This document shows positions 1 through 64,000 of a DNA stretch of 64,000 nucleotides, piece by piece. The position numbers were made by a program, and so were the translations under genes. The first letter of the stretch is position 1. Each line of letters starts with the position of its first letter. Under the pieces are notes generated by a model that did no database searches, was not told where the DNA came from, and saw only the letters and a list, made by a program, of their open reading frames with translations. This DNA is from Bugula neritina (taxonomy: Eukaryota; Animalia; Bryozoa): the NCBI GenBank assembly GCA_964035545.1, contig OZ037768.1:15793875-15857874 (forward strand). The letters are read 5' to 3'.

Positions 1-698
1 ACACTACCACAGGACTCTTCCAGCTAAAGGGATCCGTATGCCGTATGAAACGGAAACTGCGTACATGCCAAGCCAAGCACCGGCGTGCCCAACAAGGACT
101 CTAGTTAGACTACCCGGAGTACTCCAACTCCGCCTCTTGGGAGAAGCCCAGATGTCATGTAAATGTTTGACTGCTTAACAGGTTATCCCCTGTCTAACAC
201 CACAGCTAGCTAGTATTCCTCGTCTATCTACAGCTGGCCAATTGTATGCAACGGATCGTTATAATGACTCTGTCTATTATTATGTCTCTTCCTGTATATT
301 ATGTATTATTTTGTCCACTGATGTATGCAATTACTATTGAATGTTTTTTTATATATATATCAGAAAGATGGCTTTCTGCTGGTGGGGGCGGTGTGGTGGT
401 TCGTGGAACTACCAGCAGCACAACATGTAGGGTCGCGTAATTGACCCGGAACAATGGATAGCCAATTAGCGTAGTTGATAGTTAGCAGCAATTGTAGTTT
501 CCCGCTGCTAACTCAGTCGAAGCTAGAGTGTGAAATAGATTAGATGTGTAACTTGTTTGGAAATAATGTATCGTGTTGTTATAATGTATAGTTGTGTATA
601 AAATATACTCGTTCACTCGACTTATCCTGGTGCAGTTCTATAGTAGATAAATAGACTCTCTGGATAGCACATCAACCCTAAATCTGAAAATCTTAACA
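1..698 (+). mobile_element. 3' end of an LTR retrotransposon (internal 3' region, PPT, 3' LTR 392-698), tail-to-tail with the Gypsy element to the right
   Basis: Purine-rich tract GGTGGGGGCGG (381-391) directly followed by TGTGG (392) ... TAACA (698). The upstream hairpin-PPT motif CAGAAAG-N4-CTTTCTGCTGG matches the element end at 63720-63751. Confidence 0.7.
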
Positions 699-821: not shown

Positions 822-1986
822 CTAGCACTTCTTCGCCAGCCGTTTCTCTAGTCGGGTCTGCAACTTAGCCAGCTCGGTGGTTGCTCGCTTCTGTTCTTTA
901 CTGAGGCGAGCCATACGCCGTTGCACTTTCCTAATGTCGGCTAGTAGGGATTGGTCAGGGTCGCTGTCATCTCGGGGTGTGTTGGGGTACATAGGAGATT
1001 GTCGTCGTTGGGGGTTGTGAGTCCTTCGTCACAGCGCGTCCAGCACGGGTTACTACGACGCGTAGAGGTTGGGTGGTTACGTCTGGAGGGTAGGTAATCG
1101 TTGTTTCGGAGGGTTGGGGGTCTGCATCAGAGTCACTCTCTACTGTAGGTCGGGTAGCGGGGAAGTGGTCCAGGAGAGTCTGTCGTCGGTCCGGGTCAGT
1201 CACGTGGGGTAGTATTAGGTCCCGGAACTCCGTGTAAGAGTCTGCGTCGACTTCATACAAGTGCCCTACGTAACAGTCTCTAGTTCGTTGGTGTCTCAGT
1301 ATCGTGTCCCTGCAGAAGTGGTGAACTCCGCAGGGACAGAAAGTCACAGTAAAGTGTTGTGGAACGTGTATTCTCAGTCTCCTAGTAGTCGATAGTATTC
1401 TTCTACATTCAGTGCATTGTCTATTGTCGTCCGTCCCTACTATTGCTTCTATCAATGTTCGAGTCCGTCGAGTCGTCCAGTTAGTCCGTCCCAGTAAGGC
1501 TCTTGGTAGTGCTAGAGTAGTGTCCTTGGCTACAGTCAAGTCATCAGTCAAGTCGTTGGTATCAATTTGCATCGCAGTGTGTGTCGGGGAGTCCGTAAAT
1601 GTTGCTAAATGTATGTCGGACAGCATGTCTACCCCTGCTTCTGACATGCTGTCCCAGTTAGTCGTAGGTGTGTCAAGTAATGCCTGTATCTCGTCGGATA
1701 CAGGCTCAGTCTCACCTGCAATAGAGTATTTAAATTTAATTACACTCTATGCGTGGGACTCCCGTTCCAAACAATATTAAATAATCGAGTCTCACTGTCA
1801 CTCACTGATCGTGTAATCAGCTGAGTCGACTGTCCCACTCTAATTATCAATATCATTCGCTGTCAGGAGTTTCAACTTTATCATTATGACAAAGTGAGAC
1901 TGCTGTCGCTACCAGAATAAATTCTAATTAATTATTATAGAATTCCTAGTAGACTTACCCCCCAAAACAGTTGCTGCATTAGACAT
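822..1986 (-). CDS. Spliced accessory gene of the Gypsy element: zinc-finger protein (exon 1 1986-1959, exon 2 1715-967; coiled-coil tail 1028-822 in a shifted frame)
   Basis: ATG TCT AAT GCA GCA ACT GTT TTG GGG G|GTAAGT donor and CTCTATTGCAG|GT acceptor are both phase 1 and join in frame with the 226-aa ORF. Motifs C-x2-C-x12-H-x3-H and C-x-C-x12-H-x5-C are present. Confidence 0.75.
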
Positions 1987-2226
1987 AATGATGCTGCTGC
2001 TTTCTTAGGGCTCGTAGATAGCCAAATTATTTATTGCAAAAGACGTGCTGCCTGTTTGCTAGCTGTAATTGAAAAGAGCGCTCACAGCTAGAGTGCTTAT
2101 GTAACACCCTATACGCTGTGATTTGGCTACGCTCTGCTGACCCCCGGCTGACCTATTCAATCCGCCACTGGGTCGCCTGCTATCAATTACCTCGCTCCCC
2201 CAGACTCCTTTGTGAATGTCGCCATG

Positions 2227-5200
2227 CTACAGAATACTGTGCATGTCGACCAAGTCACACAAGAAGTCTTTTAAATAAGATGGTGGCGCCCTGGTACGTT
2301 GGCTACGGTCCAACGGTACCGGGGAGTTTGCTGTGACTGGCGACTCTTCCACCACGGGTGGTGTCGCCAGTACGGGGGGGGTCCACCAGTACGGGTGGCC
2401 CTCCCCCAGCTGCCTCTCCCTCAGTATCCTGAGGAATTTCCATCTCATCCGGAACGATGGGCCTGTCGACCGGCTCCACAGGTGGTGGGGCCGGCTCTGA
2501 CAGGTCTTCAGGTGTGTCGACCTCCTCTTCCTGGGGTGGAGGAGGTTGGGGTTGGTCGGCTGGCGCATCAGCCGCCCCGTCCTGGTCTGGCAGTATCTCC
2601 TCAATCTCTCGATATGCCATGGGTCGCCCCCTCATAGGAGGGCGCCTAGCTGGCTCTAAGAGAGGAGGTGCTTGACCTGCCGCCTCAGGACTTGCCCAGT
2701 GAGGTTTTAGCCGTGCCTCGTTCTGGACCGACACTTGTCCAGACTGTTCCACTTTGTATGTATGATTTGGCATCACCTCAATTACGCAGTAGGGACCTAC
2801 GAACTTCGGCTGCAACTTGGCTGCCTGTCCGCGCCTGCGGCGATGACTGGTCATCCAGACCCAGTCCCCCACCTTGTATAAAGGTGGGTCGTCAGAGTCA
2901 CCACTCCTGACCTGCCACTGCTGCTCACGTAGCACCTCGTGAGCCGTCCCCATGCGTTTTACGAGCTTGTCCACGTAGTCGTGAACATTGCTCTCTGGAT
3001 TCGGAACATGATAGGTTACGTGCTCAGGAACCCTTGTTTCTCTCCCCAGCATGAGAAAATTAGGGGTCTCCAGTGTACTGGAGTGAAGGGTACTACGGTA
3101 CGCTCGCATGATCTGCGGCAACACCAAGTCCCACTCTTCCTGGCTCCTACCGATAAGCAGGCTTCTCAGAGAGTCCCCTAGCATTCGGTTGTTCCGCTCC
3201 ACGACCCCGTTCCCTTGCGGGTGATACGGGGTCGTCCGACTCTGGTTTACCCCCCACATTCTACAGAGATCGCTCATAAGTTGCGACTGAAACTGGGCGC
3301 CCTGGTCAGAGTGTATCTGCTCCGGCAAGCCGAAATAGCAGAACACCTGTTGATCCAGAGCTCTGGCCACCGAGGGGGCCGACGCATCTGGAATAGCCAG
3401 TGCATCAGCCCACCGCGTGAAATGGTCAGTTAATACCAGTATCCAGTTATTACCTCTCGCTGTTGTGGGCATGGGGCCTACCAGATCGACAGCAACCACC
3501 TGCCACGGACGACCGGCATGGAGGCGACGCCTCCCTGCGGTCTCAGTGGGGCGGCCATGCTTGCTAGCTTGGCACACCTCGCACTTCCGCACCCGGAGTC
3601 GGACATCCCGGGTCATACCGGGCCAAAACCACTGGAGTTGAAGACACCTGATCACCCGGCTAGCTCCTGCGTGAGCTTGCTTATGGGTGTCCCAGATCAA
3701 CTCCCGCCGCAGAGCTGACGGGCAGACTACCCTCTCTCGTTCACTGCGATTGGTGCCGACTGCCAACGTGATCGTTAGCAGCCCATCGCTGTTGAACCTT
3801 AGGGAGTCCCAGCGGTCACAGAAGTACTTAAACTCAGTACTCTTCACTCGCTGTTCGGCCTCACTCGGCCGCCGTCCCTCCTTCTTGGCCCGGACTAGGT
3901 CAGCTACCACTCCTGGTAGCGTGGACTGGAGCCGACATAGCTCCCTGACGTTCCGAAGCAACGCGGGGTTTGCGTGAAGGTTGTTAACAGCCTTGTTGGG
4001 TGATTCGGACAGGAGTTGCCCTTCTTCCCAGCTGTACACACCCGCTTTCCCCAACTGCGCTTCGACGTCCGAGCGAGGGGGTCCACCGTCCCTGCGCTCG
4101 ATATTCTGGCATTGCTTACACCCATCTGCCTGGCGGCGGCTGAGTCCATCTGCATTACCGTGTTTCTTACCGGGTCGATGCTCGATCCGATAAGAAAACT
4201 CTGCCAGGATCTCTAGCCAGCGCGCCACTTGGCTGGATGGTTCTGCCCATCGACACAGCCATATCAGGGACGCATGATCCATCCGAAGCCGGAATGTGCG
4301 CCCATATAGATATGGTCTAAAGTGTTTGACCGCCTTGACTACTGCCAAGAGTTCCCTCCTGGTTGTACAGTAGTTCTTCTCAGGCGCCGACAGGGCCTTG
4401 CTATAGTAAGCCACCACCACCTCGCAACCATCTTGGACCTGCGATAGCACCGCCCCCACATTATGGTTACTGGCATCAGTATCCAAAATGTACTCCTTCG
4501 CAGGGTCAGGATACGCCAAGATGGGTGCCTCCACCAGGCGATCCTTCAGGTGGTCAAATGCCTTCTGCTCAGCCTGCGTCCACTGCCATCGCACCCCCTT
4601 CGCGGTCAGCCGATTTAACGGCTGTGCAATTCCTGCGAAGTCTGGTATGTACTGACGATAGTACCCAACCAGCCCCAGGAACGCCCGCAATTCAGAGAGG
4701 TCGACAGGAACGGCCCAGTCCCTCACGGCCCGTACCTTCTCGGGGTCAGTGGCGACCCCGTCTCGACCAACTACATGGCCCAGGTACTTGACCTCGCGTT
4801 GCAGTAATGCACACTTCGAGGGCTTCAGCTTCAGGTTAGCAGCTCGGAGTCTGTCGAACACCTCCCTGAGTCGACTGACATGTGTGTCGAAGTCGGGGGA
4901 GATGACGATGACATCATCGAGATATATGAGCAAGGTCTTCCAGTGCAGTCCACTCAGGACCTGCTCCATGAGTCACTGGAAGGTGGCTGGTGCGGACGTA
5001 AGTCCGAATGGCAACACCTTCCATTTCCAGAGTCCATCCCGCGTTATAAACGCGGCCTTGTCCTGTGCTTCAGGACTCAGGGGCACCTGCCAATACCCGC
5101 TTAACAAGTCCAACGTGCTGAAGAACTTGCTACCAGCTAAGGCATCGAGCGACTCATCGATCCTCGGGAGAGGGTAAGCGTCCTGGATGGTCACGCTGTT

Positions 5201-6709
5201 CAGCCTGCGATAGTCAACGCAAAACCTCCAGCTACCATCCTTTTTCCGAACCAGGACGACTGGAGAACTCCAGGCCCCATGGCCTGGCTCAATCAGGTCC
5301 CGGTTCAGAAGGTCTTGCACCTGACGGCTCACTTCTCTCTCCTTCTCAGGACCTAACCGGCGGGTCGGCTGCCGAATCGGCACCGTCCCCGCCGCCAGGG
5401 GTATCTCATGACGAACCGTCTCAGTCAGACCCATGTCATGGTCGCCGCAACTAAACACATCCTTGTACTCAGAGAGTAGCCGCGCCATCTCCAGGCGTTC
5501 TCGCTTGCTCTCACAGCCATCACAGGCATCCTCGTACAAATCTGCTACGTGTTCAGGCACCGGCCCCCTGCCGTCTCTAGTGGGTACTCCCCGGGCACCG
5601 TCCGCTGTTTCCAGCGCGGGCCCTACATCCTCCTCTTGCACGGAGTGGAACTTCCCTACTAGAGACCCAGCCGGTAATTCTACCGGCTCCGTGAAAGGGT
5701 TTACGCACTGGACCAGGAACTCCCTCCGCTCATCCAGTCTATTCAGACTGTTAGCGAGCTGGACGCCCCCCAGTGCACCTTCCACCACTCCGAGCTCGGA
5801 GATCTCCCTACAGTTCACTCTGCAGCGAACTGTAGCCCGGGAGCGCCCAGGTACAGTACAGCGCTGTACCACCTGCACTCCCCCCACCAAGGGTCGGCCA
5901 AATCGGTCGACACAGGCCAGCTCACGCCCCGCCATCACTACTGCCGACTTGCTAAAGTCGATGTAGCACCTGTGTCGCTTCAGAAATGGCATGCCCAAGA
6001 TGGCATCCTCCTTGAGTTGACTGACGATGAAGGTCTCACTGATCATCTGATCACGGACTCTACCAGTCAACTGGATTACCCCATAGAAAGGAATACACGA
6101 CCCGTCCGCCAACGTGCCGTGTTCCCCCTCATATGGTTCTAGGCTAGCCCTGTCCTTGGCACTGAGAGTGTCGAAGAGACGTCGACTCAGTAGATTTGTG
6201 GTACACCCAGTATCCAACAGGAATGTGGCAGCTTTACCAGCAATTTTGCCGGGGAGGAAATAGCTGCTTCCATATGGCTGGGCGCTCACTGAGCGATTTG
6301 TCTCTTGAGGCGACACCTCATGTGCATGGAATTGGGGATGCACCTGTGCTTTTCGGTTGCGAGGGGGTCGTCGACGTTGCATGGGCGGGCAGGGTACGTC
6401 TCGGTCTCGCTCACACACGGGCGGCCGAGTGAATTCTCGGACTGATGCTCGTGTGGGCAACCGAGGAAAATCCCTGTTGTGCTCCCATTCGTCGTTCACT
6501 CCCTCATCAAGCAAACCTTCAAAGCGGTTTTTGAGTGCCCAAGCCGGAGGTATTGGTGGGCCTTGCGGCCGACTCACTCTCCTTGGGACTTGCCACTCTG
6601 GCGAAGGCGGCCTCCTCACCCGATGGGGTGGGGGCCGTAGCCTTTGCCTTGGGGGGTTAAACTCGGGCCCACGGTAGGCGGAAGTTACCTTGGGCCGTCG
6701 CTGTTTAAC
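2227..6709 (-). pseudogene. pol: Gypsy pol (aspartic protease, RT, RNase H, integrase) with one nonsense codon and one likely C-terminal frameshift
   Basis: LLDTGC protease, YLDD RT, TDAS-type RNase H, HHCC and DDE integrase, GPY motif. TGA at 4973-4975 in TFQ*LM. The typical terminal RSQRTRAPPSYLKDF motif lies in another frame (ORF 2227-2604) past a C7 run near 2375-2381. Confidence 0.93.
6660..6709 (-). promoter_or_regulatory. Putative -1 programmed ribosomal frameshift signal (G UUA AAC plus downstream stem-loop)
   Basis: Heptamer at 6709-6703 is in the gag frame, and a -1 slip enters the pol frame (VKQRRPKV). After a 6-nt spacer, GGCCCAAGGTA pairs with TACCGTGGGCC. Confidence 0.7.
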
Positions 6710-7554
6710 CGCCTCCCACTGCCGCGGGGGCAACTTCGTAGGAAGTGCCCACCACTACCACAGCCCCAGCATACGGGGCCGCGCCTGTCGGCGACAGCTA
6801 CCGACGACCTCTTGGGTCTCTCGGCTGTCGCCTGCTGGCGCAGTTGCCTGAACTTGGCGAGCAGTTCTCGAATCAAGCTCGTGGTTAAGCTAGATTCGTC
6901 TGCTGCTGCCACTGCGACTTGTACAGCTGTCTTCGTTGACGACGTCGACACGTCGTCTGCCCCGACTTGCTGTACTGTCGCGCCAGGTCGACTTGCACTG
7001 TCGGCTTGGAAATAGGCATTCCCAAGCCTTAGAGCTCTCTCCATAGTCTCAACTTCGGCCACCAGCAGGTGCTGTTTAAGACCGAGGTTGTTAATAGACT
7101 GGAGGAATGCATCCAGTGCTAGGCTCTGTCGACCATCGGCAGGCAAGTCGCTGTAAGCAACTTGTGCCAGTCGTTCAACTACGGTAGCGCGCTCTCGCAG
7201 ATTGGTCTTAGGATTTCTCCTAAGACTCTGCAGTTGCACGCGAGCATCTCGAGCGGTTAATCCAAACCTAGCTCGTATTGCTTCAAATATGTCACCGACA
7301 TTCTGGCTTATCCCATAGGGTTTAGCCGGCCCTGTCAGACACAACCGCAGCTGGATCAGAGTAACCCTGTTCGGCCATCCGCAGATGTCCGCCACATCAC
7401 TGAACTCAGTGATGAATTGCTCCACATCTTCTTCTCCAGAGAAGGTGGGAGCCCGCAAGTGGTACCTGTCCATAGGCAGCGCTGGGCCGCCTATGTGATC
7501 CTCTTCCATTGCTGCTGGCTCCTGTCGGGGCGCGTCGACGACTTCGTCGGCCAT
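6685..7554 (-). CDS. gag: Gypsy gag polyprotein
   Basis: 289-aa ORF downstream of the PBS, capsid-like N-terminus (APTFSGEEDVEQFI...W), CWGCGSGGHFLRSC zinc knuckle. Confidence 0.92.
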   Translation of the reverse strand: MADEVVDAPRQEPAAMEEDHIGGPALPMDRYHLRAPTFSGEEDVEQFITEFSDVADICGWPNRVTLIQLRLCLTGPAKPYGISQNVGDIFEAIRARFGLTARDARVQLQSLRRNPKTNLRERATVVERLAQVAYSDLPADGRQSLALDAFLQSINNLGLKQHLLVAEVETMERALRLGNAYFQADSASRPGATVQQVGADDVSTSSTKTAVQVAVAAADESSLTTSLIRELLAKFRQLRQQATAERPKRSSVAVADRRGPVCWGCGSGGHFLRSCPRGSGRRLNSDGPR

Positions 7555-7590
7555 CTTACTCTCTGACTAGGGGCATTTGTATTAAGTGAG

Positions 7591-7608
7591 ATCCCACCGC
7601 TGCCACCA
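7591..7608 (-). promoter_or_regulatory. Primer binding site complementary to the tRNA-Leu 3' end
   Basis: TGGTGGCAGCGGTGGGAT, 1 nt downstream of the LTR end, complementary to ATCCCACCGCTGCCACCA. Confidence 0.88.
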
Positions 7609-7609
7609 G

Positions 7610-7925
7610 TGTAGTGAATTTTGCCAGTTCACTATTATTATTTGTGGGTCTACTTAATCAAAGCCACTGCGACAGGTTGTTTACGATAAGATACTTTTAT
7701 TATTTACACAAATACAAGAAGGTTATTTACTGCTAGCATGAATAGAAAACGATTACATAATTAGTGAGCTTCAATACACAACTGTTCTAAAAGAAGTCCC
7801 AAGCTGCTCTGCCGGCTAGCTACTCAGCGCACTGCAACTACGAGTAGCTAGCTCCACCTGCTATCAATTAGTGTCACTGTCCTGATTGGTGGCTACTAAT
7901 GGTGCCACTACTGTCCATAGTTACA
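7610..7925 (-). repeat. 5' LTR (316 bp) of the Gypsy element
   Basis: TGTAA...CTACA termini, CCAAT box, AATAAA, directly upstream of the PBS. Confidence 0.85.
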
Positions 7926-8939
7926 CTCCGACAGTGTCGAACTCACAAGATACATAAAACAGTATAGAGTAAACCTTTTTGATTAATCTAATAGGAATTG
8001 CACTACTAAAATCTATCACAATATTACTGCAATGTGACAAACTGCTTTGTATATAATCTACAATAGTATATCTGCTGTAAATCCTCATCATTGTCAATCA
8101 CTCTTGAGGGATGTCTGAAGGTTGGCAAATCTTAGCTTAATTAAACTTTCTTTGCCAACACTAATGTCTGTATTATCCTGACTTAAGAAGCTTTACTCAC
8201 TTGACAGTTCCTTTTTTTACTTGAACTTGCTTTTATCTTGGCACTTGCATTTGTGGCAGACATAATATGGTGGACAGTATAATATATAGGAAGAGCATCT
8301 AGTCATAATTGCTCCTGTGCCTCATTTAAACAAGTCCTTAGCCCGTTCTAGCAAAAACCCTTTCCATCAGGGGTTCTCACAGGGATAGCAACTATAAACT
8401 TGCGTGAGTTTATAATATGGTAGATTTGATTTTACAGAGTAGTTCTGTTACGTCTGCTCACTGTTTGACGTATACTAGTCACGTAGCTGTAGCCAGCTTT
8501 CACATTGTTTGTTTAAAATACTACGTAGGTTATATTTCAGAAAATTATGGACATTCAGAATTAAGGTATATTAATAATTAATGTTAGCATACCTTGCTTG
8601 TGCTTGGTTTGCATGGGCTTTAGTAACAAGTTGTGCTGATGAAGTGTACATGCTGTAAATACTTAAAAAAAATTTATGTAGTTATTGATTAATGAATAAT
8701 AATGTGAATACAGTGAATTATAAAGCCAGGAAAAAATGCAATTGTCATATATTGTCAGCATCAGTATTAGTAGGTCTCTGGCCATGGATGCGGGTGTGTG
8801 CCTGGGCTATGACTATATGGAGGACAGGCTGTTGCCCATGTAACATGTCCCCCCTTTCCATGTCGCTGGTGTATCCAAAGGAGCAGCAGGGCTGTTCCAG
8901 TTTGGCACCAGCGCCATCGCAGAAGCTGCCAGAACAAGA

Positions 8940-17000: not shown

Positions 17001-20000
17001 TTGTTGTGCCTAAAAAATCCACATGGCAGGATGGTTTAATAACATACTTTAAACATAAGAATGCTTAATTAGGGTTAACTGTAATTCGATAACAGATATA
17101 GTGGTTTGCTTCATTTACAATCTTACTAAAATGTCAAATAAAAAAGATTTGATTTAAGTTGGGCAGGTTTGTAATACTTAACACTTTCTTAAATGCTTTT
17201 TATGTTCTGTTTTAGCGACCACTAGAATCCAATCCCAAAGATCATCTAAGGATGAAGTGTTTGGAGTTTCTGAACACTCCAACCAAGGACCACTTGGACT
17301 TGTGGGGTGATGCGCTTGTTGCTGACCTACGCCAGATCACCAATGTTGCTGTAAGCATTGTAACTAAAAAGACTCAAGACTTCGTTAGTTGCGATTAAAA
17401 TATTATCAAACCACTGCTTATCAATTCATATACTTTTTGTAGGTAAGGAGACGCTTGATGCATCGCCTGTCTGGGGAAGTTGTGGATGCTATCTGCCAGC
17501 AGTCGGAAACAACTAGGAGGCCATACGTGCCCAGTTTGCTGCCAGCTAGTGCTTCTGCTGAAGACGGTGCCGTAGCCGAATCACCACATGAGAGTACTTC
17601 TTCAATTTTATCGCAACTAAATGCACACATGACTTATGAATATATGTAAATTTTTGTATGTTGTGTAAATAAATATATGCATAGTTTTAAACAAAACTGA
17701 AACAAAAATATCAATATTTCTTGTAAAATATAATGCAAAATATGTAATATTTTAATCAAAAGTACATGCATTGCTAACTAGCAAAAGAGTCAATCATCCC
17801 GTTAAATGCTGTTGCAAACCCTGGCCAATAGCCACCATCCTATCCTGCCAGTCAACACGCCCAACCCCATTGAACCATCTGCAAAGAGTCTCCTGGATGT
17901 CTTTTGGCTCTCTACCTGCATGATTACCGGCCAGGCGACGTTGCAGTGGATGCAACTCTGTTTGAACTTCTTGTCGCCAGGTAGCATTCTCAACATACGC
18001 ATCGGCATCGACTGTGAATGTCATGGCATTGTTGTCTAGCAGATAGTTCTGCAATGCACAGCATGCCATTATGATGTTGTCTACCTTGTCAGGCTGCAGA
18101 TTAATTGGCCGCTGGAATATCCGCCACATTGCCACGAGTCTACCAAATGAGTTTTCTGTGATTAAAATAAAATATCGAAATTGGTAAACAAATCATTTCT
18201 TTAGTTTAACTTCACTGAATGTATTCCATAATTGTAATTAAAAAAAGTATTTACATACCAACAATTCTCCTGGCTCGACTGAGCCTGTAGTTGAACACCA
18301 GTTTATCGTTGCTGAGTGGGCCACGAGACCTTGGATATGGCTTCATCATGTACTTTTTTAGCGGAAATGCCTCGTCTGATACGAAGTGGTAGGGTACGAG
18401 GCTATCAGTGTATGGCAAGCATGCATCATCTGGGAGGTGTACTTGGTCACTCTCAAGTAACTCCTTCAGAGGCGACTCTCTCCATATGCCTGCGTCTGAA
18501 CTTCTGCCATTGGCCCCAACGTTTATGTAGATGAACCTACAAAGTATCAGATGCTGTCATTTTGTGGAAAGAGCATGTCTGCACTCAAATAAATTTGGGG
18601 TTGAAAATTAATTTTTGCATTCAAGAGAGTAAGGATGCATTAATTACCTTTGATTTGCGTCTGCTATGGCCATCAACACTATGCTTTCATAGCCTTTATA
18701 GTTGTGGAATGCTGAACCAGCAGACTTGGGCTTCATTATCCGCTAAAATAAGCCACAAACACCACAAAATTGAAATACTCTGCGCCTTGAAAATTGCCTA
18801 CAAATAACAATTTCATTTTGTAATACATACAATATGCTTGCCGTCTAGAGATCCGATGCAGTTAGGATAGTTCCATCTAGCAAGGTAGTCCTTTGCTACT
18901 GCTCGCCATTCATCTGCGCTCTGTGGAAACCTTAGATGGGTTGGCTGAAGCACTTTATAAATTGCAGCACACATCTCATGTATAATGTTGGATATTGTTT
19001 TTACACCTTCAATATGAAATGAAGAGCATACAAAAACAAAATAGTATTATGCAAACAACCAAGTAATATTACATTACATACTATTACAAAATATATATAT
19101 ACCTACCTAGACGAAATTGGTAATGAAGATCGCTCATTGTTGCCCCAGTTGCTAGGAAGCGTAGAGTGCAGGAAAGGCGAGTCCGAGGATCAATGGCAGG
19201 CCGCATCTGAGTGTCTTGTTTTTTTGTTAGTGGAGTGACCATTTCCAGCAGCTTGTCGAAGAGTGGCTCTGGCATACGAAAGTAGTGAGTGAAAGTCCCT
19301 ACCCTTCGCGAACTATCATCACGTAGCAGCTTAGGGACTGTTGTATTCATTGCACCTATAATTTAAAATACAAACAAGAAGTAATTAATAAATATACATT
19401 CCCATCAATATGATATTTAGGTGAGTTCAATTAATTTAGTATAGACTGCAATTAAACATTAATAGTTATAAATTAGAATCACCAAATAACTAAATAATTA
19501 AATAATTAAATGTCATGAAACACTCACCTATTTGTAGGATGTAGGTTAATGAAGAGAAGTAAGAATATTTTTTTGTTTAATTTAATAAGTCAATTGATTT
19601 TTAGTTTGAAACTCATACATTAAATTAATCTCTCAAACTTGAATTGCAATATTTCTTTGTGAGATTTGGCAAATAACTATACATTTTATGTACCTATAAA
19701 ATCATTAACAAATTTTCAATATTCGACTATTATTGAAATAGAGGTTTAAGAAATTGAATTAATTTTCGTTTAAATTTTAAATCTGCCTTTTAAGAGCAAA
19801 CTTTAAAGTCTTAGTCTAATATTGAACGCATGTTATTAATTTTTGTTGTTTTTTCAGATTATTTAGAGGATTTTACACAAAATAAGATTAAGTGTAATTA
19901 CAATATTTCAGTTTCACAACTTGAACTAAAAAATACTCATACTGATACAAAATTAGACAGCCTAATACAGTAATACTAATAGTAATAATAATTTACTAAT

Positions 20001-33830: not shown

Positions 33831-34142
33831 CAAAATAAGTTGATCTCTAGAGGCTCCCTATAGACATTCAAGTTGCTGTGGAAATCTTACTACAACTGCA
33901 GTAATCTGAGGTAATAATCTCAAGGCTGAACGGTTAACCTCTCAAAAACTTTAAGTTCAATCATCAATGTCAATGAACTTGAAGTCGAAGTGATAGATGT
34001 TGTGTTGTTTGACTCGCTATTATTCACCACGAGACTCGTTCAGCTCTGGAATTTTCCTGTTAGCTAGAATTGCAATAAATCATGATAATTATCAGCTTAG
34101 ACTCAACCCATCGTCGTTGTACTCTTACGCACCAATCACACA

Positions 34143-36114
34143 TAATGGCAGCAGACTTCCATTTGGCATATCTAATGGACCAGAGATCTTTTCTCAAGCT
34201 ATATGCAGACTACTAGGCGACATAGAGAATGTCATCTGTCACATGGATGATATTCTAATTCATGGTAAAGATGCAGAAAGCCACGATAAAACCTTGAAGC
34301 TGGTTTTACGCAAACTGGAAGAAGCAGGACTCACATTGAATGAAGACAAGTGTGAGATTGGCCAAGCTCAAGTGAAGCTTTTAGGCCATATCATAGATGC
34401 TGAAGGAGTCAGCCCCGACCCGGATAAAGTTGCATCAATACGTGACTTTCCAGCCCCTACCTGTAAGACAGAGTTGAGACGACTAAATGGCATGCTGAAT
34501 CAGCTAGCTAAGTTTATCCCTCACCTGTCCGAAATCACAGCTCCCATGAGAGAGTTACTGAAAGAAAGTAAGGCTTGGACATGGAGTCAACCTCAAGAGG
34601 AAGCTTTCCAAAAAGTAAAGCAAACACTGATGTCTGCTCAGGTCATAGCACACTATGATCCCAAGCTGAAAACAATCGTTGCCACTGATGCTAGCAACAC
34701 TGGACTTGAAGCTGCTATGTTTCAAATACAAAGAATGGAACAAAGAGGCGAGTATACTATGCATAAAGGTCTTTAACCGCAGTGGAACAAAATTACGCCG
34801 CAATAGAAAAGAAGGCATTGGCAATGGTTTGGGCATGCATGGTTACGCTTATGGGTGTAAAAGACTTGGACCAAGTGCCAGCCAGGATTCTCCGATTGAG
34901 ACTGCGGCTCATGAGGTATGCTTCAAAGGTAGAGTATATCCCAGGGTCTCGCAACCACGTAGCGGATGCTTTGTCGCGAGCACCCTCTGGTCTACCATCT
35001 CGCATAGATGTGATGCTGGTTGAAGAGCTAGAAGCTAGCACTTCCATTATCCCTTCGATAGATACAATGATCGAAGAAATCAAGGAGGCACAACAACTAG
35101 ATGCTGTGTGCCAAGAGGTCCAGAATCTCATCATAAAAGGATGGCCTACATATAAAACAGATGCCCATAGCAGTACACCCTTAATGGGATGTCAAAGGAC
35201 ATTTGACACAATCTAAAGGCCTTCTCTTATATAATCAGCTGCTAGTCATTCCTAGCAACCTAAGACTAAAACTGCTTGACCGCATTTACCAGACTCATCA
35301 AGGAATAGTAAAATGCCAGGCAAGAGCCAGAAGAGCTATCTGGTGGCCGGGAATGTCCAAACAAATAAAGGAAATGATACAAGGGTGTCGACAGTGCAGA
35401 AGTAACTCACCGACGCCAGTAGAGCCTCTGCATCCGTCCACCTTGCCATTTAAACCCTGGATAAAGCTAGGTGCAGACCTGTTTGAGTTCCAGAAAAAGA
35501 ACTCTCTGTTAGTGGTCGATTACCATAGCAGATACATAGAAGTTAGGAGATTGGACTTCCTGTCTTCAGCATTCATTATGGACAAAGTTAAATCCATCTT
35601 CTCAACACCTGGAATTCCCGAGGTAGTCATTTCTGACAATGGACCTCAGTTCAGCTCTAGGGAGTTCCAAGAATTCGCCAAGAGTTATGGTTTTCAACAC
35701 GTGACCAACTCTCCAAAATATCCAAAGGCCAATGGCAAAGCTGAGAGAGCAGTAGGAACAGTAAAGCGTCTGTGGAGCAAAACTACAGATCCATACCTAA
35801 GTTTACTAACCTATAGAGCTACTCCACTCGAAAACGGATTCACTGCTTCAGAACTCTTGATGAACAGGCTACCTCGAACTACTCTACCCTCAATGCCTGA
35901 AACTCGAGTAGTTCACAAGCCGCCAAAAATTGCTGAGAAGGAACAACACATAAATCTAAGGACCATGAATAACTACAACCAACGGCACAAAGCCACTCTG
36001 TTGCCTGAACTTTCTCAAAGTTCACCCGTCTATGTCAGAGACACTAAGAAACAGGGCACAGTTCTGGCAAGTGTAGCTCCACACTCATACACAGTTAAAA
36101 CTGAAACAGGAGTT
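34143..36114 (+). mobile_element. Internal Gypsy (Mag/K02A2.6-like) pol fragment: partial RT, RNase H, integrase
   Basis: RLPFGISNGPEIF, HMDD, TDAS, H..HQG...C..C, SDNGPQF, NGKAERAV. Frameshifted, no LTRs. Confidence 0.88.
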
Positions 36115-37572
36115 ATTGTTGTTGTACTCTTGCGCACCAATCACACAATAGACAGGTTATAGACCCAGACCTATCAGTCTGTCACTATCACTATGGAATG
36201 CCATTGATGTACCATAAAATTAAATATAATTAATGCTTATATGTTTTATCTATTATATCATTATTCATTATTAATATGATTATTTATTGCTAAAAGTATA
36301 CTATACCTATAACTAAAACTTGTAAGCTATAACTAAAAGTAAAACTAAATATAAGAGTTAAGATTAACTTAAAGTGCAACGGTTGAACTGTTTTTTGATA
36401 ATATTATTAGTATTAAAATATATCCAATATTAATATAAACTTGAAATTCAATTTCAACATTTGATTTATAAATTAAACTTATATCATTATATTTTTTTAT
36501 TAATTTAATTTTATATTTAATTTATCGATTGATGAAATTGATTACCATTATTCTAGTTTTAAAAGTAAATCATTATCATTATGATGATGCAATATCATGA
36601 ATACCTTTATCATAATGATAGTCAGCAATTTTAAACAATAAAACACAATCGCATGACTAAACTATTACATTTACTATAACTATAACTCAGTATAAGTATA
36701 ACTATCGAGTTACTTTTAGATTTTTTGTAAACTCATATGTAGCAAGTTGGCAAAACTGATAATGCATTTCACCCTTCGAGTGTTCATGATATAACTGGGG
36801 TTATAGTTCAATACTGATATTATAGTCGAAACTCAATAATTATTCTACCTTCTGAAGGAGACTGCAACCATTGAACTATAATAGTTTCAGTTCAGTGACT
36901 GCAACAATTTCTCTTTGAAGTTACCGAGACCACTTCAAAATAGAAGACAATTCCCAACTTGTTTACGCAACGATGAAACTACGTTTTATTGGGCATTTAC
37001 TTTCAGAACCAAAAATTATAAAAATTACTAAATACTCAAGAAGTTCTATACGACTCTTGAGTTGCGTACAAAAATGGATTACATTGTAAAGAAATACTTT
37101 TGTTCAAAGGATTATTTGGTCACACCAGTAACCTTGCCAATTATCAGCAAATCTACATATATTATTTTATCTTCATTTTCTCACACCCAAGCCCTATGAA
37201 AGCAATGAGAAGCAAATGTTGCAGCTGGCTTGTGAAGTGTAATGTCTTATGTCCAATGCTTATTTGTATTAAACTGGAACTGCTAAAATTAACACAAGCT
37301 ACAAACACAGTAGACTTTTGACACCAAATAATTTATTTACCTATTCTTGAACACAATGTGTTGAACCAGCTCACAAAAAAATGTACATTCAGCTACATTC
37401 ATCATCTCTTCGGAAGTACAAGTATTTTATAAAAAGAAAACCATACTATTCAAATGTTGACATGAGCAATGGACGCTATGAGTTCAAATACAACGGAACA
37501 ATTAGATGGAAAAGATGAGGCCAAAGAATCTGCTCTGATCAACAGTCACTAATTTTAAATTTCCATCAATAA

Positions 37573-43137
<5,565 letters not shown>

Positions 43138-48712: not shown

Positions 48713-50740
48713 AGTAGGGGAAGGCGGGGCAAGTTGGGTCAAAAATTGGTTTTTTTAATATTGTGGCCGATCTAAGCATGTAAATATCAAACTGTTTGTC
48801 ATATAGATAGATTAACACGTTATCTGCAATAGCCCAATTTTATTTTGAGGCAACACCAACATTTAGTCAGCTGACCCAACTTACCCCGCATGAGGGGTAA
48901 GTTGGGTCACCACCAAAAACAAATGGGGCAAGTTGGGTCGCTATTTCATTACTATGGCATCTAACATCTCACTGAAATAAATTCAGTTTATTAATGTTCA
49001 TTAGGTCTAAGTAATGATTAACAGCATATTAGTTTGTGAAAAACACACAAAGTTTGTAACGTAGGCCCCCAGTCATCATTTAAGTTAGCGAGATTATTTG
49101 AGTTTAGACTCTGGGAATAGACGAAGAAGTAAACCAAATCTGCTTGGGGCTATTATTTTTATTTAATAAAGGCATCAAGAAAACTAACTCGACTCAAAGC
49201 CCATGCCATCTAGTTTGTTGCCAAAACTAACACAGCCTATAGTTCGAACAGTTGTTCCATTTGAGACAGGTGTCCCCAGCACTCTAACAATTTGCTCAGC
49301 CTCTACTGTATATATGTCTGGCTATGATGGCTTAGAGAATGTGCCCTGTGGAGTCTTTTTGTTAAAGTCCAATCTCCTTCATCCTTGCCAACCACCATTC
49401 CAACAAAACCTATGAATGAACATTTTCCTTTGTATTTTGTCACCACAAACGCCCCTTCTTCTACATCTGCCACATCCTGTTCTTCTGCTTCCGCCTCGGA
49501 TGGTGAATCGCTGTCTGTCTCTAGTGGAACTATATGGTTCTGCTCATCTTCTTCACTGCAGGATTCTGGCTCTTTCTGTATAGGCCTACGCTTAGGTCAT
49601 TCCTTTCCTTTATTCAACTTGTCTGCTCATTCGTGTTTGATTCTTTCTTTCTCTGGCGTGCCTGTCAGTATAGCGGTCTTTACCCGCTTTCTTCTGGGTG
49701 CTCCATCTTTGCGTAGAGCAGCTTTGGGTAAGAGAAGAATATCTTGATTGGTAATAGGCTGCTTAGAGCTAGCCACCACCAGTGAAGTAGAAGTATCCTG
49801 AGAGGTAGCCCCTGCCAATTAACCAGAAGTACTAGGCGTGCTTGGATTGTAGATTGGAATCTGGAATAAAGATGGCTGAGATGAACCTGGCTAAGTTGAA
49901 TTAGATCATCTTGCTCATTGATCACTCTTTGAGGTTTGTACGTAGCATCGGTTGAAACATAGTCGGCGACGGTAAATATGCCTGCTTTTGATGAGAATAT
50001 GCCAGGTGAGCGAAAGCCCGATGTTATATTGGCAACAGTCATGTTTTGCCCAAATGCTCGCTCTGTTAGGGCGCCAATGTCTTGAACTTTTATGCTCCTG
50101 TTCAGATAGGTTATCATTAAGTTATTCATTGCCTTGTTAGAGTATGTTTTCATTAGACCGAAAACAGTTCTATCCATGGACTGTAATCGGTGTAAAGTAT
50201 GTGGTGGCAAGGTGAGTAGAACAACTCCTGATTCTTTAGCAAGAGTTACAGACTCTAAGGATATATGTGATCTGCAACAATAAATTTACCTTAACACCAT
50301 GTTTAGTGACTCGGGGCAAGTTGGCCTACTGACCCAACTAGCCCCAAAATTTTGACCCGACTTGCCCCATTGGCAGCAATTTTGTAAAGCATGTAATTTT
50401 TGCATGAAAAATTTAATTTAGAAAGTTTTTTAATTCACCAAATATAAGCTAACTACTTAAGCATTCATGACACAAAACATCAGCACTCTATCCTCATACT
50501 AAATGACAAAGTTTTGGTCTACTGTTTTGGTGAACAGAATATCAAATGAAGCAAAAATATTGATATTGGCCAATATTTCACTCACCTCTTTTTCGATAGT
50601 GTTGTTGGAGTAGCAGGAAGTTATTTTAGTTTGGCCTTTACTTTTTGACCTAACCATTCAGTTTCCTAGCATTACAGTTTTTGAGAAAATGGCCTGACCC
50701 AACTTGCCCCTTGACCCAACTTACCCCAGCTTCCCCTACT
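48713..50740 (-). mobile_element. pogo/Tigger-like (Tc1-mariner superfamily) transposon, internally deleted
   Basis: TIRs AGTAGGGGAAG..GGG(C/T)AAGTTGGGTCA, many subterminal GGGGCAAGTTGGGTC copies, TA at the right flank, DDE_1 remnant SHISLESVTLAKESGVVLLTLPPHTLHRLQSMDRTVF. Confidence 0.85.
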
Positions 50741-51543: not shown

Positions 51544-54500
51544 ATGGCTTGCGGCACTAATGCTATCAAAACCTGCCTCTGTATACTCAGCGTCTTCTTT
51601 TGGGTGAGTAAAGTTTACCTGCCATTTTGCCTAGCTCTCAGCAATCACTACCAGCTCTCTCAACTGATGAATTTATAGCGAAGTAACAATGCAGTGTAGG
51701 TCCCAGTCACTAAACTTGATAAAACTGCAGCATACTTTTTGCAATCATGGTGAAGATTTGAAAATAATTTTAGAAATAATCATGTAAGTTGCTGATAATA
51801 TAAGTTAAAGTAGCCGAAGACTAGCTTGTCTACAGTAAGGTTTAAGTTTGCCGAGACCCTTATGCTTGCTCGAGTGTAATCATATTTCCAATTCATCTAG
51901 TCTGTCGTATGCCTATATGTTTACTATATAGGGACACTTTATCTTGAAACAGAAGCCTCCCATTTCTCTTCTTAGGCAATGTCTCCCTTTAAGAGAGTAA
52001 GATTAAGCGTACTAAAGGGAATATACTAAAAACAAGTAGCTATATATAAACTTGAAAGTTTTATGCTCAGGCATTGTAGGAATAAGTAATGAATCAAGAC
52101 TTAATTTGAGTCATCCACCATAGATAGGCGACACCTGTTAGATGTACTTAAGACACAGAGGTGGCGTATGAGTTTAGAGTTTAAGTAGCCTATATTTGTT
52201 TCACAAAAGAGTGTCGCATGCTGAAAGTCAAAAAAAGTTATTGAAGTGCTTGCTTTCTCAATTATCGCTTAAACGGTTGGTATGCGTGTATTTTCATATC
52301 TATTGTTATGTAAATGCAGTTTTCTTGCTTTTGGCTATAGGTGTGTGCTGCTCGCTTATTTAAATGCTGCCAAAAAGTCAGCAATATCCAGTGGCTATAC
52401 AGATCTCCATATATCTTCCAAATCCTTCATATTCTTGAAAGTTACAGTTGTGGCCAATATGCTACTATGTAGAGATTAGAATGCTATTTTTTTTGTTTTT
52501 AGACTTGTGCTGTAACGCTGATTGTTATTGGCTCAATAATCCTCGCAGAATATGGAAACATATCAGAGCTGGCGCAATCAACTGAGATTTTGGCTCCGTC
52601 CATGATCCTCATTGGTGCTGGCGTATTCTTATTTATTGTTGGACTGCTGGGTTGTGCAGGCGCATTGAAGGGCAACAAGTTGGTATTAACTGTGGTAGGT
52701 TAAGGCCAAACATTACTCAGCATACCTAAAGTATATGTGTTGCAACAAGCATTTTCTCTATCTGAATTGTTTAATCACTCACTCTGCTATGTGATTATTG
52801 TAGTGATATGTATGTATACACAATACACTGCATAGCCGACATCCTATATGTTTTGTAGTTTTTCCTTCTCATGCTGGTTGTACTAGTTGGAGAAGTGGTG
52901 GCTGTGGCATTTGGATACTACTATAGAGAGCAGGTATGCTAATCCATTCACAATACATACTAAATGTCTAAGCATCACTGTACAATCACAGTTCTTTCTG
53001 GTCAGCCGTTCAGCAGAGGTTCATCTTGTTGCAGGTTGGAACAAAGTTGAACACTAAATTTCGTGAGATGATTAAAGACTGCAAGAATGATAGCAGTGAT
53101 GCCAGTTGTAGTGAAATTGATTTCATACAAAAAAAGGTAACTGGAAATACTGCTACTAGTAATACATTGTTTTGAGGAGGACGTTGTGTGCTATGCCAAC
53201 TTAACAAACGTGCCATACCAGTATGTTTCATTTGTATAAGCACTAATAGTTGTCTGATTGTACAACATTGCTATTAATTATGCTACTGATACCTTGTCTG
53301 AATATATTGTATATAGAATCATCTCGAAAACTTTTCCCTCCTTCTCTTTCCCTTTCTCCCCCCCCCTCTCTCCTTTCCTCTTTCTCTTCCTTTCTGCAAC
53401 ATCTAGGAAATATATGGTTGTGGTAGTGCTTCAAATGTTTATCACCACAGTACACTACATGCCAAAGGTGAATAAATAGTTTCTAATCAAGGATCAATAT
53501 TTTAGAGGTTTTAAGTAACACAATAAAGGGATAAAAAAATCTTCAATAAAAAGTGCTGAAGAAAAATTTGATATCTTCAATTTCAAATGTTCAAGTTTAA
53601 GTAAAGTTGAGTTTTCATTACTAAATATTTAAGTTCATTTCCGTTTTAAATTAGACCATACTTTGCATAGGTATTCAAATGACTGGCTAGCTAGCTAATT
53701 ATCTAGTTAGGCTGACTAATAGCAATCTAAATTAAGACTTGTTGATAAATACTGACAGGCTAGTTACTAATCAAAATCGTGCCAATTTCCGTAGTAAAGT
53801 TTTAATATAACTAATTTAAGGATGCTATGAAATATCAAAATAATTCCTAAATGTAGACAGTTTTGATAATGGTATCATCTGCTGAGAGCACACTGGTAGT
53901 ACAGCTGTTTTACTTTTCTACTGTATCAAACATTCCCAACCCACCTCCTTGTCATACTAACATGTTTTCATTTAGATAGCGAGGTCTGCTTAACCAACTT
54001 TTTTACAATCCAAAATGGTGGTTTTTATGCTTTTTCACTAAAGAATTGTGAACTAATATTCAATTTTAAAGTGAAATACACTATTATCTCTATTTATGGG
54101 TGTTGTAATTGTTAGCTGATTATCTCAGCTATTGTCTGCAACTGTGGATTGTAAAGTTACTTTGCTTTTTGTAAATCACTAGCTAATAAAATTCTAGTTC
54201 CATTTTTATGCTGCACTGCTGAATGAGCGCAACTTTCAGAATGTGCATAGTGATGATCTTTCAATGGCCACTAGTACATGCTGATTAAGTAGCATATTTC
54301 CTAGCTACTCATATGCTAAGGGCTAATGGTGACAATACATTTAGTTGCTAGTCTGGTCTGTAGTTTGAATGCTGTGGGGCTGATACCTATGAAGATTGGT
54401 TTATGTCTACTGAGAACTATTCCATCCCACAATCCTGCTGTCGGGAGAACAACTGCACCACACCAGAAAGGGGCACAAATGAGACAATTGCTGATGAAGT

Positions 54501-55028
54501 TATTTTCACGCGTGGTTGCTCAGCAAAGGCCATAGATCTCATAGAAGACTACTTTACCTGGATATTTGTTGCCACCATTATTGTTGTCATACTACAGGTA
54601 ATGGTTTCCAGAACTGCATGTGGAGTTACTTTTTTGCTGATAAAAGTATATTTCGTAAATATGATCACTTGATTTTGTAGAAAAACACAATCAAAAGTAT
54701 TAAAAATTTTTTAAAACATGTTATTGGTGTTTCAGCCCCCATTTCTACTACTGTTGCAATATATTGTAATACACAGCTATATTCCTTATGAAAATAAGCA
54801 GCTTTGTTTATTGTTATGAGCAATTCACTTACAGTGATATCTAGTTGTAAGTAATTTAATTTTTCAATATAATTATGTTACTGGTTAATATACTACTATA
54901 TTTATATTTCATCTTTTAAAATGTTGCTTTCATTGCAGGTGTTGGGGTTAATTGGAACTTGTGTGATGCTTTGTCGCTCCCGGGAGACCCCCTATTCCAA
55001 TTTGGACAGTCAAGGATACAGGGTGTAA
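51544..55028 (+). CDS. TSPAN3: Tetraspanin, TSPAN3-like, 250 aa (exons 51544-51603, 52503-52694, 52859-52933, 53035-53136, 54364-54597, 54939-55028)
   Basis: Four TM segments, CCG, PQSCC and GC motifs; C-terminus MLCRSRETPYSNL resembles TSPAN3. All exons are phase 0. Confidence 0.85.
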
Positions 55029-63366: not shown

Positions 63367-64000
63367 TGTAGTAATTTGTGCAATTACTGAGCGTGAGTTA
63401 TTTACTTGCGTATAGTTAGCTGGTTATTCTGTTATCAATTACTAGGGTAGCTGTCGAGTAATTATATTTATTATCCACAATAAAGCATAAACCAAACATC
63501 ACATCAAATTATCCTATACAAGAGTCAACTACTAACACATGTTACTACTACAAGCCTCCGCTTACAACAACGTGATATAATGTTAATAACCCGGGAAGTG
63601 TCACGTGAATCGGAAGCATATCTTCCGGAGCTGCTAATTGGTTGCTACATAAGAGTCTAAGTATTCCAAGAGTAGGGAGAGGGCGATTCCCGTGTTTGTA
63701 CTTTGCACTACTCACTACACCGTCCCCCCCAGCAGAAAGCCCTACTTTCTGATAACACAATAAAAAAAACACATAATGAAAAACTATACAATAATCCAAA
63801 AAGAAAAACATACATAAGTAAACCCACAAAGAGTAAGAAAAGAAATAGTTAAACACGACAACATGTACATTAGAAGACAACAGGGTGATCGATCACACAC
63901 ATCTAGTCAGCTATTAAGAGAGAGGGTGCTTACCAGCACGCGGGCCAATGTCGGAGCGCTCGTCACATTCCAAACGAGTATCGCTCAACGAAGGTGCCTA
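63367..64000 (-). mobile_element. 3' end of an LTR retrotransposon: 3' LTR 63367-63719, PPT 63720-63730, internal region running out of the window
   Basis: Minus strand GGGGGGGACGG then TGTAGT...ACTACA perfect 6-bp terminal inverted repeat. Same pre-PPT motif as 361-391. Confidence 0.8.

Follow-up and report, generated by a model that had tools for sequence, protein, structure and literature searches.

The analysed window, a stretch of 64,000 nucleotides from the bryozoan Bugula neritina, opens inside a Ty3/Gypsy element that carries, behind pol, a spliced accessory gene for a zinc-finger protein. The central proposal of the first-pass annotation is supported in part: the gene is element-borne and spliced, its product is not Env and has the layout of a nuclear regulator, and sister copies of the element keep it. 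It is very probable that the finger protein works for the element as a nuclear regulator of some kind. As read from the sequence, its predicted function is activation of the element's own transcription, to which we give a little less than an even chance.

The element lies on the minus strand, and the window start falls within it and cuts its 3′ side. Upstream of the finger gene it consists of the following parts:

7610..8020, minus strand: 5′ LTR, with its inner end at 7610 and an uncertain outer edge (7925-8020)
7591..7608, minus strand: primer-binding site, 18 nt directly behind the LTR-like end, presumably of the tRNA-Leu type
6685..7554, minus strand: gag with a CCHC knuckle (knuckle E 0.055, below the cut-off)
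2230..6754, minus strand: pol with protease, RT, RNase H, and integrase (Pfam, PDB match)

The order of the coding regions is that of Ty3/Gypsy elements, with gag followed by protease, RT, RNase H, and integrase (Pfam), and the top PDB match of pol is Ty3 Gag-Pol (E 7.8e-80). A second (3′) LTR of the element was not found within the window, and the element continues past the window start. Elsewhere, the window contains a second, frameshifted Gypsy pol fragment with RT, RNase H, and integrase (33997-36162, plus strand), DDE transposase remnants at 17794-18556 and 49680-50285 (both minus strand; DDE_Tnp_4, and DDE_1 below the cut-off), and host-gene exons at 38183-40984 (minus strand) and 54364-54672 (plus strand) of the ATP synthase alpha/beta family and tetraspanin. 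No further copies of the finger gene were detected in the window, including the surroundings of the Gypsy fragment at 33997-36162.

The finger gene sits between pol and the 3′ end of the element and is divided as follows:

1959..1986, minus strand: exon 1, with ATG at 1986, nine codons plus one base, matching the N-terminus of the homologous protein P0003
1716..1958, minus strand: GT-AG intron in phase 1, with ends covered by sister contigs and a variable middle
967..1715, minus strand: exon 2 reading frame of the window copy, which stops early at TGA 969-967

Both the 28-nt first exon and the 243-nt AT-rich intron of the first-pass annotation are borne out. Exon 1 (1986-1959) reads MSNAATVLG plus one base and meets a GTAAGT donor at 1958, and the intron, which is 64% A+T, contains stops in the read-through frame and ends in a phase-matched TTGCAG acceptor at 1716. 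The proposed junction also exists in nature, as P0003 (70% identical) starts with 8 of the 9 exon-1 residues and then joins exon 2 in exact register. No other 9-mer reaches a score of 6 among the 47,838 scanned across 203 proteins. P0003, a single record, would represent either a transcript or an intron-less retrocopy, with splicing implied either way. P0013, a close relative of P0003, as well as P0008 and P0024, read through an acceptor-like stretch instead. In a cluster 36% identical to the sister protein P0001, P0199 is spliced and P0050, P0198, and P0200 read through at the same junction point. A search with the P0003 N-terminus, which yielded 4 candidates, found no second spliced form.

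At the DNA level, both ends of the intron are covered by contigs from runs X3 and X4, which skip its middle. Of 42 indels, 12 are listed; the intron holds 10 of these, the region upstream two, and exon 2 none. No joint excising exactly this intron is present among the 12 joints listed from three contig runs (contigs drop rare forms), and thus the DNA copies seen retain the intron. From these comparisons, the intron of the finger gene is judged real. It could be argued that exon 1 and the intron are a chance reading and that the exon 2 frame starts at an internal ATG or is reached from the LTR, as gene callers start most homologues at an internal Met. This is highly improbable given the exact register of the join in P0003, the accumulation of indels in the intron, and the coverage of the intron ends by contigs of more distant copies.

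The window copy itself is broken by two neighboring features:

975..985, minus strand: short deletion relative to P0001 and sister contigs, with the basic patch missing and the frame shifted
822..968, minus strand: coiled-coil tail, out of frame in the window copy, matching the tail of P0001 at 47 of 47 aligned positions

The continuous spliced protein that had been described, with its end at 822, is therefore not found in this copy, in which the exon-2 frame ends at TGA 969-967 and the coiled-coil tail lies in another frame. The sister protein P0001 is 99% identical, with only 2 mismatches to exon 2 over 224 aligned residues. Since it runs unbroken from exon 2 into the tail through a KKKR patch that is missing from the window copy, a short deletion near 975-985 is indicated; contigs of run X1 likewise show extra sequence near this position. 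By comparison with its sisters, the window copy is frameshifted by this deletion and cannot make the described protein. At the aromatic position of the finger, the window copy has L, and most relatives have F (F 0.61). The host element of the finger gene is also dead because pol is disrupted by an in-frame stop near 4973 and by a frame change in the integrase tail.

Sister copies present a different state. A word-based search returned 43 homologous proteins at 44-99% identity among 820 candidates, and by this measure the finger gene is real and the resemblance exceeds chance. The reading frame is present in sister copies, being carried by both homologous proteins and contigs. Contigs of three runs were placed on 800-2150, giving 229 variant rows, of which the 40 best-supported are considered here. 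Among these 40, 22 of the 29 exon-2 variants are synonymous (p 3e-7) vs. an expected fraction of 0.29, which is transition-weighted and applied to rows pooled over the three runs and so does not amount to a formal dN/dS. Third codon positions account for 18 of the 28 variant sites in exon 2 in the rows listed. This predominance of synonymous variants speaks against neutral evolution, and the sister copies apparently keep the finger protein under purifying selection. Summed contig depth was rejected as a measure of copy number.

Two features of exon 2 define the protein:

1606..1632, minus strand: acidic-hydrophobic motif, activation-domain-like or export-signal-like, present in 19 of 21 close relatives
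1147..1515, minus strand: double-finger domain of about 125 residues, a C2H2 finger and a C-x-C...H...C/H finger, and then a [YF]EVD strand and helices

The reported acidic N-terminus is confirmed by 14 D/E and no K/R in the first 60 residues of exon 2, and both fingers were read correctly, with finger 1 being C-x2-C-x12-H-x3-H from 1416 and finger 2 being C-x-C-x12-H-x5-C. The product was also rightly separated from Env, as it lacks a hydrophobic segment (top 19-residue Kyte-Doolittle mean of 0.74 in the window product). Across the window product and eight homologues, the highest 19-residue hydropathy ranges from 0.52 to 1.00, and no Env-type membrane segment is present.

A profile search against 1.84 billion representatives recovered 240 clusters, defined at 50% identity, with E 0.001 as the cut-off; 78 of them pass 1e-10 and 25 pass 1e-30. 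Of 129 fetched proteins covering the core, 104 contain the double-finger motif. An alignment of 113 sequences shows almost no variation at seven zinc ligands and at a Val-Asp pair. Five basic positions on the finger helices are kept as well (0.71-0.90 K/R), which suggests, as a hint only, that the domain binds nucleic acid. The strict C2H2 motif of finger 1 occurs in 27 of 43 close homologues, many of which are fragments. The last ligand of finger 2 is C in 63, H in 23, and neither in 2 of the 88 sequences parsed. A TGEKP-type linker is absent, and the fingers are joined by a five-residue hydrophobic strand. Upstream of the fingers, acidic residues outweigh basic ones in all 21 close relatives and in 53 of 61 distant members; downstream, the balance is basic in 16 of 16 and 34 of 39, respectively. 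A heptad pattern is present in 17 of 23 close and 36 of 62 distant members (vs. shuffled means of 0.2 and 1.3), and a basic patch is present in intact relatives and in 48 of 85 members with long tails. The family thus keeps the order of acidic N-terminus, finger domain, basic patch, and coiled coil.

An AlphaFold model built with 113 sequences contains a block of pLDDT 95-98 at P0001 residues 51-160, a long C-terminal helix, and low-confidence linkers, and both fingers are predicted to pack as one compact domain. An earlier model from 18 sequences was poor (mean pLDDT 48.7); the coiled-coil helix at 241-283 is predicted in both. Pfam has no match for the window product, and 47 of 49 distant members are without any hit at E 0.001. 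Among 18 members, 15 match Pfam zf-C2H2_4 when E values up to 1 are allowed, the best E being 0.00079 and the finger matches all sub-threshold. By their sequences, the double-finger proteins are a family absent from Pfam. The best PDB sequence matches of the profile are DNA-binding-type C2H2 fingers (SALL3, E 6.5e-4). Foldseek with the full model as query returned nothing at E ≤0.001 in PDB or BFVD, and DNA-bound finger arrays gave no significant structure match (best E 1.7). A wide fold search matched the coiled coil only, an Atlas search gave low recognition with only generic finger clusters, and Pfam and fold searches found no chromatin-reader or enzyme domain in the family.

An acidic end, a finger domain, a basic patch, and a coiled coil together form the layout of a dimeric transcription activator. 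In the proposed mechanism, the finger protein would be expressed either from a weak spacer promoter upstream of exon 1 or from a spliced LTR transcript. The basic patch would then carry it to the nucleus, and the coiled coil would pair two finger domains for binding to a site present in both the LTR and the region before exon 1. Recruitment of the polymerase II machinery by the acidic end would close a positive loop like that of foamy-virus Tas. Because the intron must survive in genomic RNA, splicing would be incomplete or restricted to the short transcript.

The region between pol and exon 1 and the 5′ LTR hold the putative control signals of such a loop:

1987..2230, minus strand: spacer between pol and exon 1, a candidate internal promoter or upstream splice acceptor, with an AT-rich box near 2035 and an AG at 2063
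2176..2189, minus strand: 14-nt word TAATTGATAGCAGG, spacer copy, a candidate shared control site identical to the LTR word
7857..7870, minus strand: 14-nt word, 5′ LTR copy, the same as the spacer word

The word TAATTGATAGCAGG is the longest common to the 5′ LTR and the rest of the element. Shuffling the spacer gives a shared word of this length in 3 of 3000 trials and shuffling the entire internal region in 3 of 200, and none of 223 host windows shares more than 12 nt with the LTR. When gaps are allowed in the alignment, the score is equalled by 25 of 500 shuffles, and the word was found after the fact. A shared control site in LTR and spacer is therefore suggestive only. The spacer was rejected as an LTR remnant, as nothing aligns outside the 14-nt word; it contains a long hairpin and is partly covered by contigs of runs X3 and X4. 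Just upstream of the gag ATG lie a donor-like GTAAG at 7559 and a short upstream ORF (7559-7576). Joined to the acceptor-like AG at 2063, this donor could yield an LTR-driven spliced mRNA of the finger gene, and both this route and an internal promoter are possible from the signals present.

Several observations weigh against activation of transcription. The fingers are without a canonical linker and are predicted to pack as one domain, and no significant structural match to DNA-bound finger arrays was obtained. The 9aaTAD pattern, as we assume it for screening, is not enriched (4 of 21 close relatives vs. 7.6, and 14 of 61 distant members vs. 14.2) and was rejected as a special feature. The acidic motif at 1606..1632 fits an export signal too, given the nuclear-export-signal pattern that we take as standard. 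The tested Gypsy-type precedent, CERV, works on RNA export.

In the most serious alternative, the protein would bind structured RNA of the element and, like Rev or CERV, block splicing or license the export of intron-containing genomic RNA, thereby limiting its own spliced mRNA. Such a role is possible, on the unlikely side. Retention of the intron in DNA copies requires that unspliced RNA leave the nucleus, and the persistence of the intron in the DNA copy next to the joined form in P0003 matches a CERV/Rev-type trait. The basic patch, the export-signal-like motif (19 of 21 close relatives), and the coiled coil also parallel the NLS, NES, leucine zipper, and cysteine finger of CERV described in the available part of the report (PMC10309623). 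The donor-like site before gag and the acceptor-like site before exon 1 would suit RNA regulation as well. The intron folds strongly (z -5.6), with the acceptor inside a predicted hairpin, but its folding is no stronger than that of many gag-pol windows (z down to -7.3) and was rejected as special. In the intron, spacer, pol, and gag, most of the sense RNA from 1600 to 7400 (minus strand) folds much more strongly than shuffled sequence; exon 2 and the LTR do not. The export-signal pattern exceeds the shuffled mean of 10.4 in close relatives, but in distant members it shows no excess (31 of 61 vs. 29.8). The long acidic N-terminus found across the family would better suit an activator, and finger 1 is akin to DNA-binding-type fingers.

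Relatives of the finger gene bear on the remaining alternatives. Three distant members, P0139, P0165, and P0090, begin in an integrase tail. The first two were found by a motif that we take to mark the integrase tail (2 of 195 proteins; 7 of 3900 shuffles) and the third by alignment to the pol tail of the window (12 of 29 identical). Since these three begin in this way, the linkage of the finger gene to pol is old, as judged from the window together with the three integrase-tail proteins. The integrase-tail starters fall in two separate parts of a quick tree, for which 13 of 118 rows were dropped to thin near-copies and in which 47 of 102 inner branches are open. Scans of metagenome contigs, viral contigs, and prokaryote genomes found no relatives.

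The integrase tail is where other Gypsy elements carry chromodomains, and three distant members in frame with it would fit a factor that binds DNA or chromatin of the element and keeps copies open or steers integration. Plant VANC proteins offer a parallel for anti-silencing, and the layout evidence is the same as for an activator. We consider a chromatin role of this kind unlikely, as no chromatin-reader or enzyme domain was found and no full pol fusion is present among proteins of 1300-3710 residues (a weak test). In the window element, moreover, the finger gene has its own start codon and is separated from pol by a stop.

Integrase-tail starts also speak to whether the homologues are ordinary host genes captured once, a concern raised by the first-pass annotation to which the answer is divided: some are annotated bryozoan genes, and others start in the integrase tail. 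The named homologues are XP_067940964.1 of Watersipora subatra and KAF6037488.1 of Bugula neritina, both annotated genes, and in the quick tree the Bugula protein is sister to the group of the window with support 94, which points to a bryozoan as the likely host. Some homologues look like host genes, and the tree gives no direction of transfer between host and element. P0199 and P0201 (KAF6037488.1) resemble each other closely in an acidic first exon of some 65 residues and much less in the finger exons joined to it; the words VKTE and VKVE in the first exon are SUMO-site-like. The two proteins possibly represent a host locus with alternative, element-derived finger exons. P0054/P0197 (XP_067940964.1) and P0069 have two tandem finger domains and a coiled-coil end and are candidate domesticated genes.

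A finger gene captured once from the host and carried as a passenger without a role for the element would agree with the annotated homologues (XP_067940964.1 having two domains), with the sister position of the Bugula protein, and with the shared first exon of P0199 and P0201. We find this quite improbable. Passengers are expected to decay, yet the protein is maintained in sister copies; members starting in an integrase tail are spread over two distinct regions of the tree; and the annotated genes may themselves be domesticated or element-borne. A second paralogue within the same element argues in the same direction and is located, with a nested repeat, in the 3′ region:

3..104, plus strand: the 33 terminal codons with the stop of a likely second family member, with 18 of 27 residues identical to the P0141 C-terminus
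357..697, no strand assigned: solo-LTR-like nested repeat, AT tract between the convergent genes, with AT-repeat flanks

The segment at 3-104 (plus strand) matches P0141 with E 6.5e-6 among 203 queries (tblastn), and both sequences end 6 residues later. P0141 belongs to the finger family, being 32% identical to P0001 over 157 columns, and lacks both the basic patch and the basic finger-2 residues. The element likely carries two convergent finger paralogues, of which only the tail of the second lies inside the window. Possible transcript ends are AATAAA at 729 (plus strand) and AATAAG at 767 (minus strand). The repeat at 357-697 has a partial second copy at the far window end (63713-63768, 82-88%) and no similarity to the 5′ LTR of the element, and it is likely unrelated to the element.

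Judged from P0141, the opposite-strand paralogue may act, as a speculation, as a damping partner of the activator. The Tax/HBZ circuit is a comparison for such a pair of activator and antisense restrainer. The widest picture would be a widespread, env-less animal Gypsy lineage with a two-gene switch, in which the spliced activator drives the LTR and its own promoter through the shared site, the antisense paralogue restrains it, and bryozoan hosts have domesticated the domain as alternative finger exons. Taken as a whole, this picture is rather unlikely.

LTR retrotransposons are usually considered dependent on host factors for their activation. A finger family placed after pol offers a route to asking whether retrotransposons encode their own transcription or export switches like complex retroviruses, and it bears on whether element genes feed host zinc-finger repertoires. 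Several known systems come close to it. Foamy-virus Tas/Bel1 is a 3′ accessory gene product that acts as a nuclear transactivator of the LTR and an internal promoter (PMC8003144, available part). The finger gene is like Tas in its 3′ accessory position, and the internal promoter and activation are here only predicted. The foamy virus is a retrovirus with env, and its spliced product is given as Bet in a figure legend of the available part (PMC8003144). No match to Tas was found in the Pfam, PDB, and viral-fold listings, where such an absence does not exclude homology. In the plant elements Grande (gene23), RIRE2, and Retand, additional ORFs are antisense only and no zinc-finger domain is named (PMC7264820), whereas the element described here has a sense gene with an intron and a likely antisense paralogue. 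The third gene of the animal LTR elements Tor3b/4b of Oikopleura has an internal promoter, located in pol or in the spacer that follows it, but it encodes a membrane Env from an mRNA without splicing (PMC4402516, available part). Bdelloid rotifer ORF3 types are likewise non-Env third ORFs in animal LTR elements, but these encode esterase, exonuclease, coiled-coil, or membrane proteins, and the term 'zinc finger' is absent from the main text as available (PMC5408684). A finger gene of the present kind goes unmentioned in the available parts of PMC5408684, PMC13524379, and PMC8220671. No account of the finger family was found in the literature searched, which had Repbase, subscription journals, and supplements outside its scope, and earlier annotation is possible.

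The closest known system is CERV of the C. elegans element Cer1, a spliced, nuclear, non-Env 3′ protein of a Ty3/Gypsy-type element that is needed for RNA export according to the available part of its report (PMC10309623). No other Gypsy-type accessory protein in the literature searched has had a regulatory role tested. This already known spliced nuclear 3′ regulator, which works on RNA export and not on transcription, was overlooked in the first-pass annotation, as were the frameshift of the window copy and the likely second family member on the other strand. As described there, CERV has 517 aa and five exons, three of which share the gag frame, contains a G-protein-like domain and a C4-type loop, and is without obvious homologues beyond nematodes (PMC10309623, available part). 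Set against this description, the finger gene is distinguished by its C2H2 and C2HC/H double finger, its own short first exon after pol, and its likely convergent paralogue. The kind of gene is thus already known through CERV, and the gene described here belongs to an uncatalogued, widespread finger family that is probably present twice in the element.
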